DNA of 64,000 bases from a virus. Position 1 is the first letter of the stretch; the number at the start of each line of letters is the position of its first letter. Positions 4,097 to 55,282 of this stretch are shown here, in pieces. The position numbers and the translations under genes were made by a program. The stretch spans positions 40,159 to 104,158 of IMG/VR virus record IMGVR_UViG_3300002026_000045, one strand, 5' to 3'. The notes beneath the pieces are model-generated. The model had not been told where the DNA came from. It did not search any database and worked only from the letters and a program-made list of their open reading frames with translations.

Positions 4097-7043
4097 TCAA
4101 AGCCAATTGAGTGAAAACCATGCAGCATCTTTCTCATTTGTAAATGCTGCATACATTTGGTCTGTCCCGCCTATTTCGTTAAATTCGTCGTTACCGTTAT
4201 TGTTCCATGTTCGATGAATGTCAGTTCTGTAATGCCTAATATCATTATCTTTCATCCATTCGTCTAACGTCGAGTGAAATTTCCGGTAATTTTCATTGAA
4301 CAATGTTCCGATCTTGCTATCATACGGGCATTTAACAATAACAGCATATCCAACATAAAAGTGTTTGATATCATTTGCCCTACGATGTACTCTAGTGTCA
4401 TACGCCCAATTATACTCTTGCTCAGTCTTGAATCCGCGAATTTGCCATTCCTTTTTACCTAACAAGCGAAGTATAATTGACAGCATTATGTAGCCAATGC
4501 TCCCCACATATCCAATTTTTCTTTTGCTGCTTCAGCGCGAGCAAACGCTCTGTTTTTCTCTGCACGGGCAGAATCTAAATCACGATTTAAATGCCTTACT
4601 TGCGAGTCTAATTTCTCAATATGAGATTGTGTGTCAGCCAACAATTGAATTACTGTTCTATTTTCAAGACGTGTAATTTCTTTTTGCATTTCGTCCATTG
4701 TTGCTTCATTTTCAGAAAGTTGCATTTCATTAGCGTCTAATCTTTCTTTAGCAACATCTAAATCGTCACCGAACACTAATCTATATGCCGCAGCATCCGC
4801 GGCCATATCTATTAGCCTTGCCACAATGGGATTAGAGTGTAAGTTGTTTATCCACAAATATTGTATAAATTCAGAATCTGACAATTTGCATTGACTCATT
4901 GACATGTTAGCTTCTCCATCGCAAGGTAGCTAGCGTTGCATCTGCTGGTGATCTAACAAACAAATTAACGTACCTGTGGCTAGTTACTAAGAAAGGAGTT
5001 TTGACTGCCCATTTCTTTTTACGCTTTTGGTTGTGCAGACCTTTTGGAATTGCTGGTCCGATATTGTCAACACACCAAGTGATTACGCGATCACGGCACT
5101 GATTGATAGACTCATCGTTCACTCTTACTTCTATTTTAATCATTAGTTGCAATCATTTTCTGTTAAAATCTAATTCCGTTGGTTCGCATTGCAGCAAATG
5201 TGAGTCAATTGGTGTAGGGTAATCCACTAAGTACACTCTAAGTCTATACCCAGACAACCCAACATGATCAACTGTATAGATATTTCCGTTGTATTGAACT
5301 TGCGTTCCAGGGCGAAATATTTGCATATACATTAGCGGGATCTTTCTGTCAGTGTTCATCTTTTGCGTACAAATAAAATACAGTTAAGTATTTATTGTAT
5401 GCTTCTGCAACAGCAGTGCTGATTTCACGAGCCTTAACATGTTTGTCGTGTTCTTCAACAATGGCTGACAATTGTTGAAGATTTGCGAGCGGCAACTCTG
5501 CTGACACAGTTGACGGCTCAGTTACAACGGCATGGTAAGAGCTCCCATACCCAGTTAAAACAGGCGTTGACTTAGGGTAAGATATATTTACGGAAATAAA
5601 GTATTTCCTGCAAAACTTGTCCACTGGTGGTTCAACGAGATGACTCATTTAATAATCCTGAAACTCTATTTGCAAAATCAATAACGCCATCCATGTTTTC
5701 AGCAATTGCATCATACCCATGCATGTATGCATTATTGTATGCTTGTTCATAGCAAAGCTTAAACAGATCAGGGCGCAACTCATTATACTCTAACAGCATA
5801 GAGTCAAACCATATAGTTGCGGCTGCCATCGCCAAAGATTCTTGCTCTTGCTTAAATTTTTCTGCTGCTTCTTCTGTAATAGGATCAGCAACTTTTTCAA
5901 ACATTTTAGAATGAAGTATTGCTTCTTCCTCAGACTCAAATCTAGTTGCTTGCCCATCTCTGTAAGCATACCATGAATATGATACAGGTGGGGGCTCAGC
6001 ACACTCGACATAGTTTGCTTTATTGCAAGCTTCTTCCCACGTAATCATTGACCTGCCCTAACTAACGCAAGTAGAATATCAAACTTCTCTTTTGCATCCT
6101 TTAACCCAGGATGATTATTGCAAAGTTCTGTCAGTTTAGCTTCTTCAACCATTTTTTCTTTAACCCACGCAATAGCAGCACGAGTATCAGCATCAAGTTG
6201 AACCATTTGTGATGTGGTGTAATTAGTTGATACCACACCAGTGTGATCAACTATTTTAACTGCGTTAATACTGCCATCCCACACCATTGTTCCAGACAAT
6301 GCCGGCAAGGTTGTATAAGTCGCATGCTCCATTCCTGCCCCAGTGATAATAGTGTTAATCATAGTTTGTTTGATCAATACGAGATGGAGAGAATTCCTGT
6401 TTGTAAAAATCTACAAACTCTTGCATTTCTTTAATAATAGTAACTACATCATTTTTTGTCAAAAATATTCGATTGCTAATCTTATCATCACCATCTACAT
6501 TAGCAAAATCAATATATGGCATATTTGTGCATGCCCATTTGATTCTAAACTCTCTGTCTTTACTTAGCTTAGTCATCATTATGTTCACACACTACTTCAA
6601 CTGTGCCGTCAAAAATGTAACCAACTCCGCGCAGCCATTCTTCAAATCGTGGCAGCAATTCATCCCATGTTTGCTCACCAACAATTGTGTGTTTAATTTC
6701 ACGACCTGGCCCAAAGTTATCTGTTTCGGTGTCAGTCATAATAAATTCGTATTTAATTGTCATTTGTGATCTCCGGTGTATTGCGCAATGCTTCCATAAT
6801 TCTAACTTCTTCCTCGTATTTTTCTTTGAGTGTTCGAACTACAATAAGCGCGTCCCTGGCTACGGTAGCACAAGAATCAGCACGACCATATTCTCCATAA
6901 AGCACAATGTCACCCAACGCATTGATTGCGTGGGCGACAGCTTCTTCAAGTGGGGGGCCTGTATTTTGCTCAGCTTCTTCTTCTGGAGTTTCTTGGTTCA
7001 TTTTCTCCAAGATATCCTTCATTTTATCTAGCATGTCACTCAT
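4097..7043 (-). other. Cluster of about 10 small hypothetical phage genes
   Basis: Tightly abutting minus-strand ORFs (4097-4507, 4486-4905, 4907-5152, 5153-5359, 5349-5648, 5632-6048, 6045-6377, 6355-6588, 6569-6763, 6753-7043). Confidence 0.6.
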
Positions 7044-7112
7044 TTTTTACCTTCCAGTGTAATAAACAATACACAGTATACGTTATATCTAAAGTAACTG
7101 CAACTTATTTGA

Positions 7113-7424
7113 TTAAACTTGGATGTTTACTATTGCACTTTGTTCTTGCTGTTGTTTAATAAAACGCTGCACATCTTTATATATTTGCAAGGATGCTTCA
7201 GATGGAATTTGAAGTTCAACTTCATGAGTTACCGAATTTGTGTACTTCATTACAGTAACCGGAGGGTCTTTACTCATTTCATAAGTTCTATTAATTTGAG
7301 CAGGCGACCGATTTATGTCAGGCGACACTTTTTCAACTGCCAACGTTGCTGGTGACAGTTTATTGATTATGTGATTAACTAATGTTGCTGCATTTGGTGC
7401 AGTAGGTATTTGGTTTAATTGCAT
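7113..7424 (-). CDS. flaG: FlaG-like flagellar protein
   Basis: VMKYTNSVTHEVELQIPSEASLQI resembles the FlaG core (VkvvD..TgEvIRQIP.Ee.l); lies directly downstream of flagellin; GGAGG SD. Confidence 0.7.
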   Translation of the reverse strand: MQLNQIPTAPNAATLVNHIINKLSPATLAVEKVSPDINRSPAQINRTYEMSKDPPVTVMKYTNSVTHEVELQIPSEASLQIYKDVQRFIKQQQEQSAIVNIQV

Positions 7425-7443
7425 GTTGCACCTCCATTAAATT

Positions 7444-7466
7444 AGTGGCCAGTAATACTGGCCACT
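7444..7466. terminator. Strong stem-loop between fliC and flaG
   Basis: AGTGGCCAGT-AAT-ACTGGCCACT, perfect 10 bp stem; no U tract on the minus strand. Confidence 0.5.
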
Positions 7467-7471
7467 TTTAC

Positions 7472-8293
7472 TTATCTAATTAAACTAAGCAAATATTGTG
7501 GGAATTGATTGACAATTCCTAACGTAGACGACATGAGTTGTTGCCTGCTTTGTAGCAATGACAATTGATTTGACAATTCTGCAACATCAGCGTCCTCAAT
7601 TGAAGAAATTGAACTCTTTAGTGAGAGCTGAGTTGTAGCAACATTTTCAGCAGTCTTTTTCAATCCTGAAATCTGAGAGCCAATAATTGCCTGGTTTGTT
7701 CCAACAGTAGCAGAGGCAGTGTCAAGAGCAGTCATTGCGGCAGCCGCTTTTGTCGCGTCAGTAAGATCGATTGTGGCAGCATCAATATTCAAAGTAGCGC
7801 CGTCTGATTTTGCAGTAGCAATTGTTCTTGTATCACCAGAGTTGATGCCAGTTTGAATGTCTACGGATGCAGCCGCAGCACCAATTAAATTTTGACCAAA
7901 CAATTTTGCACTGTTAGCAGTATTGTCTAATTGTTTTTGCAGTTCAGCAAAAGAACTTTGCAGTGCTGTGCGTTGATCTGCAGATAACAACGATGATGAT
8001 GCTTGCGTAGCCAAATCCTTCATCTGTGTAATGATAGACTGCTGGGAGTCTAATGCGCCGTCAGCAACAGACAATAACGATTGTCCTGCACTAATATTCT
8101 TAGTTACAGCATTGTAACTTGATTGCTGCATTTTAAGAGATGACAAGATAGCCATACCTGCAGGGTCGTCAGATGCAGACAAAATACGCTTGCCAGAACT
8201 AATCTGTGCAGATACTTTTTGTAATTGAGTAGCGTTGTCGTTTAAATTGCGAGCAATAGACGAAGCTAATGTGTTGGAGTTTAGTGATAACAT
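7472..8293 (-). CDS. fliC: Flagellin (minimal D0/D1 type, 273 aa)
   Basis: SSGKRILSASDDPAG, MKDLATQA, IQTGIN, IEDADVAE and NQFPQYLLSLIR flagellin N- and C-terminal signatures. Confidence 0.92.
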   Translation of the reverse strand: MLSLNSNTLASSIARNLNDNATQLQKVSAQISSGKRILSASDDPAGMAILSSLKMQQSSYNAVTKNISAGQSLLSVADGALDSQQSIITQMKDLATQASSSLLSADQRTALQSSFAELQKQLDNTANSAKLFGQNLIGAAAASVDIQTGINSGDTRTIATAKSDGATLNIDAATIDLTDATKAAAAMTALDTASATVGTNQAIIGSQISGLKKTAENVATTQLSLKSSISSIEDADVAELSNQLSLLQSRQQLMSSTLGIVNQFPQYLLSLIR

Positions 8294-8380
8294 GATGGTT
8301 CCTTTAATATAAGAAACCGCATAGTTAAATGTGGCGGATTATTACATCCTAATTGATAACAGAAGTTACTCTGTTAAAAA

Positions 8381-8388
8381 TATTTATC
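8381..8388 (-). promoter_or_regulatory. T4-like late promoter upstream of fliC
   Basis: GATAAATA overlapping the stop of the upstream gene; same motif precedes many late genes in the window. Confidence 0.55.
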
Positions 8389-8710
8389 CTTCTAATGACA
8401 ATACTGTAGAAATAAAACCAATTTCGTCATTAAAAGTTATTGGTGACTGATGAATTAACACTTTGGCAGTCGCTACCTTAACGAGCAACTTTGTAAAAAA
8501 TTTGCTGAATATTGCAAATTCATCTGGTGGCAATGATTCGTTTAAATTGTCGCATACATACTCTAATACCTCAGCAATGTTGGCTAATGACGACAATCTA
8601 ACTGCTTTGGAATTGGATGTAGTCTGAGCAATAAGCAAATGCTTTTTAATTCCAACAAACAATTGATTAGACAATTGTTGTTTGGACATTTGTTCTTGGT
8701 ACGCAATCAT
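8384..8710 (-). CDS. fliS: FliS-like flagellin chaperone (divergent)
   Basis: Helical 108 aa; AYQEQ...QLF.G..KHL..A...L.NI.EVL..V..NL...F...L..A...EI pattern fits FliS; adjacent to flagellin. Confidence 0.55.
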   Translation of the reverse strand: MIAYQEQMSKQQLSNQLFVGIKKHLLIAQTTSNSKAVRLSSLANIAEVLEYVCDNLNESLPPDEFAIFSKFFTKLLVKVATAKVLIHQSPITFNDEIGFISTVLSLEG

Positions 8711-9598: not shown

Positions 9599-9838
9599 TC
9601 ATAAAAATTTCTCATCTGGATCAGCGAACGGGCACTCAAACATAAACCCTTGGAACTTATCTCCCCAGCCAGCAGCCGTATGCTTTAAATCTGATTTAGT
9701 AGGATAGTGGCGCAAAAGTGACGCGGCACGATGCCTAATATGTTTAGGCAGTCCAGGCGTCACTTTAGAGTCTGCTAAGTTCTTTAAGAAAATTTCAGTC
9801 TCTATAACTGCATTTGATCGTTCAAACGGTAGAGTCAT
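9599..9838 (-). CDS. BPSL0761-like protein
   Basis: MTLPFERSNAV ... LLRHYP. Confidence 0.6.
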   Translation of the reverse strand: MTLPFERSNAVIETEIFLKNLADSKVTPGLPKHIRHRAASLLRHYPTKSDLKHTAAGWGDKFQGFMFECPFADPDEKFL

Positions 9839-10244
9839 ATCCCCACCCGTTGGCTTTTATTAGCTTAGACTTAACTCTGACATTAGGCTGCCTATGCTTT
9901 TTAGTGTCAGTAAATCCCATCATAACGCCAACCTCTGCGACTGCGCCGCTGCGGCACAACCCTGCGTGACAGTGCACGACGACATTCATGTCTTTTTCTA
10001 GTGCATGCTTCAGCAATCTCACAATCTCAACTGCTTGTGCATCTTGAATCTTTGTTTCGTCTGGAAATTCACACTCGTTTTCCGCGTCAAGAAATTCAAA
10101 GTGATGGACTTCCCTAAACTGGTTGTATGGATTAATTACCCACCCTGCTGGGTCGGTAATTTGAATAAGCATGCTATTATCACCAGCGTCTTTGTGACAA
10201 CCATTGGCAACATCTGCTGCCGCAACATTTTGTATCCAGGCCAT
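9822..10244 (-). CDS. Protein tyrosine/dual-specificity phosphatase
   Basis: VHCHAGLCRS (HCx5R) and FEFLD; start placed at MAWIQN. Confidence 0.85.
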   Translation of the reverse strand: MAWIQNVAAADVANGCHKDAGDNSMLIQITDPAGWVINPYNQFREVHHFEFLDAENECEFPDETKIQDAQAVEIVRLLKHALEKDMNVVVHCHAGLCRSGAVAEVGVMMGFTDTKKHRQPNVRVKSKLIKANGWGYDSTV

Positions 10245-10903
10245 TATGCAAACTCCACTTGTTGATCTGAGATAAGATTCCAAACTTCTAATTTATAATG
10301 CTCATCTGCCATTGCTGGAAAATCTGCTGCAAATAACTCGATACTGTAGTTATAGTTTCTCCCGTTACCGCTACCGCCACTACCAGTTTGTACAATTGTG
10401 CTGTCAAAGTAGTCAGAGCCACTACCATCGTATGGTCGAGGAACTTTGTGATCGCTATACCCTGCATCAATTTGAAACTTAATTTGCCCTCTCCAACCTG
10501 GGTAACCAGTTGGTGTACCAGGTGGTGAACGGCGAGGGTCCCAATTAGTTACCCCGTTTCGGGGGCATCTATGACTGTTGCTTACGCTGTCACTCCAATG
10601 CGCAGTTATAGCAATTGCTACTAATTTGTGGGCCGTGTCCCTTGCTTTACGCCATGTGTTATGCGCAGCACCATTTGCCGCAAACCATTTCCAGTTGTCT
10701 TTAATAAACTGCTCTAAGTTGGCAATACTTGTCACAGTGTTGCCCATATCAATCATAAACTGATTTCGTTCTGCGTTAACTTTTGCGATTTTTCGATCGT
10801 CAGAACGGAATTCAGCAAGTTTACGCAAGTGTTTTAGGTACTTGCTTTTATCTTCAAACAGTTTACCGTCTGTATCACTTTTCCAAACTAATACTTGGCT
10901 CAT
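10244..10903 (-). CDS. Hypothetical phage protein
   Basis: 219 aa ORF with SNSHRCP and GYPGWRG motifs. Confidence 0.65.
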   Translation of the reverse strand: MSQVLVWKSDTDGKLFEDKSKYLKHLRKLAEFRSDDRKIAKVNAERNQFMIDMGNTVTSIANLEQFIKDNWKWFAANGAAHNTWRKARDTAHKLVAIAITAHWSDSVSNSHRCPRNGVTNWDPRRSPPGTPTGYPGWRGQIKFQIDAGYSDHKVPRPYDGSGSDYFDSTIVQTGSGGSGNGRNYNYSIELFAADFPAMADEHYKLEVWNLISDQQVEFA

Positions 10904-54331: not shown

Positions 54332-54420
54332 AAGTTTTCCTTTGTTTTAAAATAAGCTCCTTAAAGAAGCCAGAATAATATTTACCTCACCAAACTGGTT
54401 TAGTTATATTATGTTATCGA

Positions 54421-54449
54421 AAAAGATAGGGCCGAAGCCCTATACTTTT
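54421..54449 (-). terminator. tmRNA terminator (UUCG loop)
   Basis: TAGGGC-TTCG-GCCCTA-TCTTTT. Confidence 0.85.
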
Positions 54450-54850
54450 GATTATGTTGGTTTACAAGGCCTTTTCTGCCCCGCTGGTTTCGCTGTTTAG
54501 GCGAAAGCTGCTTCAGTTGCAGCAACTTTGGAACCGCCGAAACGGAAGCCTTTAGCTACTGTCATCTTCACACCAGATGTTACATTTGCGTTTGCATTTG
54601 CTTTGGTTTTGCTTTTTCGACTAGGTTACCCCAATCCTACGGCTTTCACATTGCCGAGCGATAAAATCCGTACTTAGTGTTTGGGCGATTCCGGATGTGC
54701 CCCATCAAAAACACACTGCCAATTAGTCTTTCGACATTATCTGAAACGACCTGGCATATGACCCCCAGGCTCAATGTGTTGTTGGTGGAGCACAGGAGAT
54801 TCGAACTCCTTTGTCAACCACTGTTCTCTATTTTACTTTACGCTGTTACT
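54450..54850 (-). ncRNA. ssrA: Circularly permuted (two-piece) tmRNA
   Basis: T arm GGAGTTCGAATCTCC plus GTGCTCC-ACCA (ends 54783) precedes the 5' strand GGGGCAC (starts 54703); G3.U70 pair; tag ORF 54595-54497; directly after smpB. Outer ends approximate. Confidence 0.88.
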
Positions 54851-54856
54851 AACTAT

Positions 54857-55282
54857 TTATGCTATCTTTTGGCTCTTCACAATTCTTCTGTTATCTAGGT
54901 CAATATCACGATTCTTTGTTGTCTCGCGTTTATCATATTCCTTTTTGCCTCGGGCAACCCCAATTGACAATTTAAACTTGCCGTTCTTTTGGTAAATACG
55001 TAACGGAACTAAGGTTAACCCTTTCTCTTTCACTTTACCAACTAACCGTGCAATTTCTTTCTTATGCAGCAACAACGTTCGTGACCGTTGCATGTCATTA
55101 TCTGACGACCCAATGTTTGCCCCAACTAATATTACTACATCGTCTTTAATTATACAATGCGATCCTGCGATAGAGCAAGAGTTCTGAGCAATCGCTTTAA
55201 CTTCCCAAGCCTCAAGTTTCATGCCGCTCTCATATTCTTCAATAATTTCATAATCAAAAAATGCTTTTTTATTGGATATCAT
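54857..55282 (-). CDS. smpB: SsrA-binding protein SmpB
   Basis: NKKAFFDY, ESGM.L..WEVKAI, R.R.LLLHKKEI, GLTLVPL, ARGKKEYDKRE. Confidence 0.95.
   Translation of the reverse strand: MISNKKAFFDYEIIEEYESGMKLEAWEVKAIAQNSCSIAGSHCIIKDDVVILVGANIGSSDNDMQRSRTLLLHKKEIARLVGKVKEKGLTLVPLRIYQKNGKFKLSIGVARGKKEYDKRETTKNRDIDLDNRRIVKSQKIA

Follow-up and report, generated by a model that had tools for sequence, protein, structure and literature searches.

Besides their part in motility, flagella serve as major receptors, both for phages and for immune systems. The only comparable phage flagellin in print is that of FRphi, the Enterobacter Flagellin Remodeling prophage (tldR-fliC_P; Walker et al., Nat Microbiol 2026), which revealed that a phage flagellin can replace the host flagellin in the filament (PMC13418256). 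FRphi is a temperate siphovirus in which the TnpB-derived, RNA-guided repressor TldR silences host fliC, and the paper names no phage FliS (PMC13418256). Flagellar genes of Nitrosospira phages are listed in one preprint. On the bacterial side, FliS-type chaperones bring flagellin to FlhA, and Salmonella FliS cannot dock there without Tyr10, an absolutely conserved residue in its N-terminal segment that is inserted into FlhA-C (PMC5932034); Campylobacter FlaG binds FlhA, antagonizes the docking of FliS-flagellin there, and is itself secreted (PMC11536152). The locus described below carries a flagellin between a FliS-shaped protein and a FlaG-like one; no description of this flagellin lineage was found in the searchable literature.

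The window, as we call the whole 64-kb stretch of DNA analyzed here, is the last part of a 104,158-bp IMG/VR virus record with a CheckV completeness of 55%, which derives from an uncultured phage in a sample of the microbial mat type. The minus strand carries nearly all of its genes, including the three co-directional ORFs reported by the initial annotation, which were found exactly where it had put them. They are read in the order chaperone candidate (108 amino acids [aa], 8384..8710), flagellin (273 aa, 7472..8293), and FlaG-like protein (103 aa, 7113..7424). The start of the first gene does overlap the upstream phage gene, as had been claimed: its ATG shares the sequence ATGA with the stop codon of a 195-aa gene. 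The record encodes rIIA, a class I ribonucleotide reductase (RNR), a NadR-like enzyme, and a collagen-like tail fiber; its rIIA is 37 to 44% identical to those of T4-like and jumbo myoviruses, and by its gene content the record appears to be that of a large T4-like or jumbo phage of the lytic type. FRphi, by comparison, is temperate and uses TldR, whereas neither a match to Phage_integrase nor a TnpB/TldR-type domain (Cas12f1-like_TNB) was found in the 104-kb record, itself 55% complete. That the cassette sits among phage genes without other flagellar genes was confirmed and now extends from the window to the whole 104-kb record, which gave no match to the Flg_bb_rod, Flg_bbr_C, FliD_N, FliD_C, FliS, FliW, and CsrA models; cap (FliD), FlgL, and FlgK-like genes were not found in this incomplete (55%) record. 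ARAGORN called a permuted tmRNA at positions 54406-54876, which was set aside as it had no Rfam support.

The central protein of the cassette is, on its sequence, certainly a full-length flagellin. Both terminal Pfam domains score above their gathering thresholds, namely Flagellin_N (PF00669; E 7.7e-27, residues 5 to 137, 94.5 bits against 26.6) and Flagellin_C (PF00700; E 8.6e-12, residues 187 to 272, 45.7 bits against 23). The best 60 matches among PDB sequences are all called flagellin, with flagella or FliC in a few rows. As the initial annotation had noted, the large variable outer domain is absent and the protein consists of D0/D1 only, which sets this minimal flagellin from a phage-only clade apart from the FRphi flagellin with its large variable domain. 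Its closest solved relatives by sequence are FljK/L/M/N of Caulobacter crescentus (273 aa; cryo-EM filaments 9CEM, 8UXK, and 6XKY), which have the same length, the same D0/D1-only plan, and the same replacements at three arginine sites, yet the similarity is low: residues 3 to 272 of the phage protein align to residues 4 to 271 of FljL with an E value of ~1e-21 and 80 bits, the best obtained. This Caulobacter-like character might hint at an alphaproteobacterial host for the phage. The match to the FlgL model TIGR02550 is mostly to the N terminus (residues 6 to 129 in the best stretch) and stays below that model's cut-off; among NCBIfam flagellin models, the top score of 116.5 bits falls short of the 347 required. 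The phage flagellin is a member of the superfamily only, outside every named NCBIfam equivalog or subfamily.

The three arginine sites deserve comment since the initial annotation had taken the loss of conserved arginines as a mark of an aberrant, possibly “poison” flagellin. The three motif changes it quoted are present in the sequence; the argument built on them is not supported, for FljL, which forms filaments and has been solved, carries the same kinds of residue at the three aligned sites (K for R, G-T-S-S-V-G, and no S-R-I). The occurrence of the same substitutions in functional Caulobacter flagellins argues that the lost arginines are not signs of decay or defect, and the replacements characterize a whole group of flagellins that work. 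Conservation across the flagellin family spans the whole length of the protein. For the flagellin, dN/dS was 0.17 in an unsaturated pair and ~0.10 between the window and locus L010; the cassette genes are under purifying selection.

More than 110 relatives of the flagellin were found, all metagenomic, 271 to 275 aa long and 45 to 100% identical; beyond them, similarity does not exceed 40%. The family is present in none of 50,697 GenBank phage records; the cassette region had no megablast match among GenBank phages, nor did tblastn with the chaperone candidate or with the FlgK-like protein described below find one there. When 185,579 bacterial species genomes were scanned with a single pattern, no close relative of the flagellin emerged (best identity, 28 to 35%), and the best identity among 401 evenly sampled Pseudomonadota genomes was 34 to 37%. 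In a maximum-likelihood tree, the window and all context-verified loci form a clade of 24 rows (support, 96/95), and a branch with support of 98/92 separates the phage clade from the sampled bacterial flagellins. The comparison with bacterial flagellins that had been proposed for this protein sets the phage clade apart, and the clade is not nested within the sampled bacterial sequences.

Every family locus with enough flanking DNA has a phage context. Its neighbors at these loci include genes for DNA ligase, ClpP, an RNA ligase with a PHA02142 OB-fold domain, dCMP deaminase, both RNR subunits, an exonuclease PHROG, and an S74 tail fiber, and several of the loci have additional genes in common with the window's record. 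Flagellin genes are typically host genes, and the four database matches to the flagellin labeled “phage” are short contigs without annotation, possibly host contaminants. Both facts would suit the idea that host DNA was misjoined to a phage contig, or was picked up recently from a host and is nonfunctional. That idea is hardly credible in view of the rest of the data. The GC content of the cassette is comparable to that of the phage core, and GC3 is 0.25 to 0.31 in the cassette genes and 0.33 to 0.34 in rIIA and RNR. Contigs from four samples of one microbial mat study bridge both cassette junctions at an even depth of 5 to 10x, so the chimeric host insert, against which the initial annotation had asked for a check, is not borne out. 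The overlap of the chaperone candidate gene with the upstream phage gene, the recurrence of the module in at least 14 IMG/VR contigs, the distance from the sampled Pseudomonadota and from the scanned species genomes, and a dN/dS ratio of ~0.1 to 0.17 likewise speak against a host origin of this kind. The segment is a long-resident phage module, neither a host insert nor an assembly chimera.

The 14 IMG/VR contigs with family members, the largest of which are 318 and 328 kb, were also searched for the partner genes. Using HMMs built from the alignments of this analysis, we detected a chaperone-like gene directly upstream of the flagellin in 13 of them (E 1e-17 to 1e-40). The third gene varies among the relatives and encodes a compact FlgK-like protein, a FlaG-like protein, or nothing recognizable. 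The FlgK-like protein, of ~340 aa, combines Flg_bb_rod and Flg_bbr_C (TIGR02492, 3.3e-29), and its gene follows the flagellin at loci L002-4, L011, L012, L016-19, L061, L062, and L068. A FlaG-like third gene is found in the window and at L063, and more weakly at L015/L067. Since the chaperone-like gene is upstream in 13 of the 14 contigs and the third gene is variable, the conserved core of the module consists of the chaperone-like gene and flagellin, with a putative gate regulator or hook-filament junction protein as the accessory. At L011, the FlgK-like gene is itself followed by a 901-aa tail-fiber-like gene with collagen, phage tail repeat, and S74 chaperone domains.

The 108-aa protein had been called FliS-like. 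No Pfam, PHROG, or NCBIfam model matches it, and the FliS model (PF02561) gives no match at E≤1 in the protein or in the whole record. An exhaustive profile search of 1.84 billion representative proteins yielded 29 relatives, nearly all of 96 to 120 aa; profile expansion from this family across the same set reached no recognized FliS, and profile searches of PDB sequences returned matches at chance level only. Structure prediction tells more. The AlphaFold2 model obtained with the 29-row alignment is a four-helix bundle with a pLDDT of 92.3, for which Foldseek ranks FliS chains first (Bacillus subtilis 6gow_E, TM 0.75, rmsd 2.5 Å over 105 columns), followed by cytochrome b562-type bundles at a TM of ~0.53 and an rmsd of ~6 Å. 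With VIA-align against 48,161 PDB representatives, the top five matches are FliS (Z 14.6, 11.8, 10.6, 10.2, and 9.7), of which only the first exceeds the caution line of Z ~13 for helical bundles, and designed bundles come next at Z 9.6. Four-helix bundles are a common fold, which limits the weight of the FliS match. The ESM Atlas clusters nearest to the protein carry FliS, with scores of 0.82 to 0.78, which serves as a lead only.

What the protein has in common with FliS (PF02561; 5XEF, 3IQC, 1ORJ/1ORY, 5MAW/6GOW, 6CH3) is a size near ~110 to 130 aa, an antiparallel four-helix bundle, a flexible N-terminal segment with a tyrosine, and a gene that adjoins the flagellin. It differs in being only 8 to 13% identical in structural alignments and in lacking an HMM match, and its binding to flagellin and FlhA is a prediction. 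The N-terminal tail is otherwise variable, but a tyrosine is present in 26 of the 29 family rows, and two of the three others have a tyrosine at position 2; we infer that this residue is the equivalent of FliS Tyr10. Prediction of the complex of the 108-aa protein with the flagellin scored 0.21, against a mark of 0.32, and was given no weight for or against binding. The chaperone-like gene keeps its place beside the flagellin even though its own identity drops to ~20 to 30%. Thus, the earlier designation as FliS-like gains a four-helix FliS fold and a conserved place next to flagellin and lacks a match at the level of sequence, and we read the 108-aa protein as a FliS-fold chaperone that is predicted to still address the export gate. 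Such a private, FliS-shaped chaperone, together with a FlaG-like third gene (or, in sister phages, a FlgK-like one), sets this cassette apart from FRphi as published.

For the 103-aa protein, the signal of FlaG kinship is weak and consistent. Pfam FlaG (PF03646) matches the window's protein with an E value of 0.009 and 16.6 bits, below the cut-off of 23.8, and the same region is matched in 11 of its 13 relatives, with a best E value of 3.5e-4. One of the relatives bears the JGI name FlaG/YvyC, and FlaG accounts for 24 of the 30 ESM Atlas clusters nearest to the protein (score, 0.92). Profile searches of PDB sequences with this family gave chance-level matches only; the AlphaFold2 model (pLDDT 57.8) is of too low quality for fold comparison. 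Like FlaG, which regulates filament length in polar flagellates, the protein is ~100 to 120 aa in size, adjoins the flagellin, and has its HMM match, a weak one, over the conserved C-terminal beta-alpha region; unlike FlaG, it falls below the family threshold and has an unrelated N-terminal half. A FlaG-type function is putative. The protein that the initial annotation called FlaG-like is probably a distant FlaG.

The known behavior of FlaG and FliS allows more than one reading of the three proteins. By analogy, all three could plausibly act at a single site in the host, the FlhA ring of the export gate. With FlhA as a plausible meeting point of all three, the phage might flood it with chaperone-flagellin and a FlaG-like antagonist, stop the export of host flagellin, and shut down motility, which would save energy or proton-motive force or silence a costly organelle. 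The antagonism of FlaG to FliS-flagellin docking at FlhA (PMC11536152) is in favor of such jamming. We regard it as unlikely, though, because a blocker would need neither full-length D0/D1 polymerization segments kept under purifying selection across a deep clade, nor a docking tyrosine retained in the chaperone, nor the FlgK-like junction protein of the sister phages, which is useful only for assembly. Parsimony favors a reading in which phage flagellin is fed into the host's flagellum and the phage modulates the gate.

The noncoding parts of the cassette bear on when the flagellin might be made. Its leader is 90 nt long (8294..8383, minus strand) and comprises a GATAAATA motif, an extra hairpin, two conserved hairpins, and a strong AAAGGA ribosome-binding site. 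It is conserved among the closer relatives, and compensatory changes affect 4 of the 11 pairs of the two conserved hairpins. At loci L010, L012, and L011, a motif of the ATAAATA type lies just upstream of the conserved leader; we take it to resemble the core of T4 late promoters. The GATAAATA motif of the window, at positions 8381-8388, lies ~30 nt further upstream than its counterparts in the relatives, behind the extra hairpin. Neither TATAAATA nor GATAAATA is overrepresented in the window, so it is the recurrence of the motif upstream of the relatives' flagellin genes that makes late transcription of the flagellin plausible. No RNA data set is among the listed sequencing runs that carry the cassette. 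Downstream, a perfect 10-bp stem-loop (7444..7466, minus strand) begins 3 nt and ends 25 nt past the flagellin stop codon and precedes the GGAGG ribosome-binding site of the FlaG-like gene, which starts 47 nt downstream of that stop codon. A clean T-run is absent after the stem-loop on the coding strand, so the element may be an attenuator or an mRNA-stabilizing hairpin.

A T4-late-like ATAAATA motif upstream of the gene would also be expected if the flagellin-like protein and a small helical protein were to form a filament or whisker of the phage particle, or an intracellular scaffold, with no involvement of host export, and the tail-fiber-like 901-aa gene that follows the FlgK-like gene at L011 could be cited for the same idea. 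We nevertheless judge a fiber of this sort very improbable. The cassette is placed amid small nonstructural genes, far from the structural modules. Moreover, the FliS-, FlaG-, and FlgK-like partners are all tied to type III export, and a chaperone that keeps the export gate tyrosine fits a virion component poorly. Known flagellins polymerize only at the distal tip of the filament, after export.

We favor, as moderately probable, that the cassette is a flagellar filament module that belongs to the phage and acts on the flagellar type III export gate of the host. Because of its fold, its tyrosine, and its place in the gene order, the 108-aa protein would work like FliS and, in the cytoplasm, hold the phage flagellin by its C-terminal helix, and the pair would dock on the FlhA ring through the conserved N-terminal tyrosine. 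The flagellin, whose D0/D1 segments are intact, conserved, and under purifying selection, would for these reasons be expected to be exported and to polymerize either at the end of the host's filament or on one that is growing back, so that the flagellum of the infected cell would become wholly or partly viral in composition. The weak homology of the 103-aa protein to FlaG suggests that it may bind FlhA and tune or restrict flagellin delivery, as Campylobacter FlaG does. In sister phages, the FlgK-like hook-filament junction protein encoded by the third gene points to assembly on the host hook. Synthesis of the flagellin would probably be late and in bulk, given that its gene has a separate leader bearing an ATAAATA motif of the T4 late type. 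FRphi and this module would then be alike in that each encodes a flagellin that is exported by the host's system, joins the host filament, and alters the properties of that filament.

Entry of phage flagellin into the host filament could bring two kinds of benefit. The infected cell could stay motile after host shut-off, and the surface of the filament could be altered such that flagellum-binding phages, including the phage's own progeny, no longer adsorb. The roles put forward by the initial annotation, namely recoating, exclusion of flagellotropic phages, and altered motility, are likewise conjectural. It is tempting to carry this further and to picture a takeover in which the phage FlaG-like protein bars host FliS-flagellin at FlhA, the phage pair is exempt, and the filament is rebuilt as a viral one; the resulting swap of receptor would protect against competitor phages that bind flagella or keep progeny off doomed cells, and sister phages would achieve the same with their own FlgK-like junction. 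We put this fuller version forward as a tentative and rather doubtful one. The simpler proposal, delivery of a phage flagellin by its private chaperone through the host gate, is the one we retain.

The cassette lineage adds to phage-driven flagellar remodeling a deep, phage-restricted flagellin with a putative private chaperone and interchangeable FlaG-like or FlgK-like partners, found in what appear to be large lytic-type phages. If the proposed action is true, manipulation of the host flagellar export gate would be a recurrent viral strategy in environmental bacteria. The family also offers a natural set of minimal flagellins and FliS-fold chaperones without sequence similarity to FliS, with which the requirements for recognition at the export gate could be probed, and it may serve as a model for virus-driven change of motility or receptor identity in microbial mats.

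The flagellin gene is preceded by a 5' leader that folds into two hairpins (window 8294-8352, minus strand) and is conserved in L010, L003/L004 and L011, other phage-context contigs carrying members of the flagellin family, with compensatory changes. The sequence at the first hairpin is A-(A/G)-GGATGT in both the window and L011 and resembles the CsrA SELEX consensus; in L010 and L003 this site has GAG. A second GGA in the window leader lies within the flagellin ribosome-binding site, AAAGGA.

Upstream of the module, the window encodes a 153-aa protein with an HCxxGxxRS phosphatase signature (9822-10283, minus strand; Pfam Tc-R-P, 2.7e-6; DSPc, 3.5e-5). In L010, the gene immediately preceding the chaperone-flagellin pair encodes a protein with 61% identity to this one, and the phosphatase-signature gene may be a recurrent neighbor of the module. 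In a 140-aa phage protein (11117-11539, minus strand), a short stretch matches the C-terminal domain of ribosomal protein L7/L12, barely over the cut-off (2.1e-6, 28.4 bits). ARAGORN also called a permuted tmRNA of 471 nt with a tag of 32 residues (54406-54876, minus strand), which is probably false because an Rfam search of the entire window at gathering thresholds returned no match.

Gene order diverges around L071:3830-4530, in a 328-kb IMG/VR contig, since no chaperone-family gene was detected upstream of its flagellin, and the second of two 116-aa genes downstream matches the chaperone family weakly (E 4.6e-4).

Among the relatives with FlgK-type modules, L011 carries directly 3' of its FlgK-like gene a gene for a 901-aa tail-fibre-like protein (5534-8239) with collagen, phage tail repeat, 7-bladed propeller and S74 intramolecular chaperone regions, an arrangement seen in this one relative. 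L003 encodes, two genes ahead of the ribonucleotide reductase (RNR) small subunit, a 359-aa protein (110-1189) with a weak FliD_N match (E 0.014) that could be a diverged filament cap. Both L018 and L019 have a FlgK-like gene after long flagellins of 405-406 aa (L018:642-1862; L019:162-1379), whose termini are as in the rest of the family (49-56% identity) and whose middle contains an extra ~130 aa, which suggests that the phage flagellin has gained an outer domain in these two contigs.
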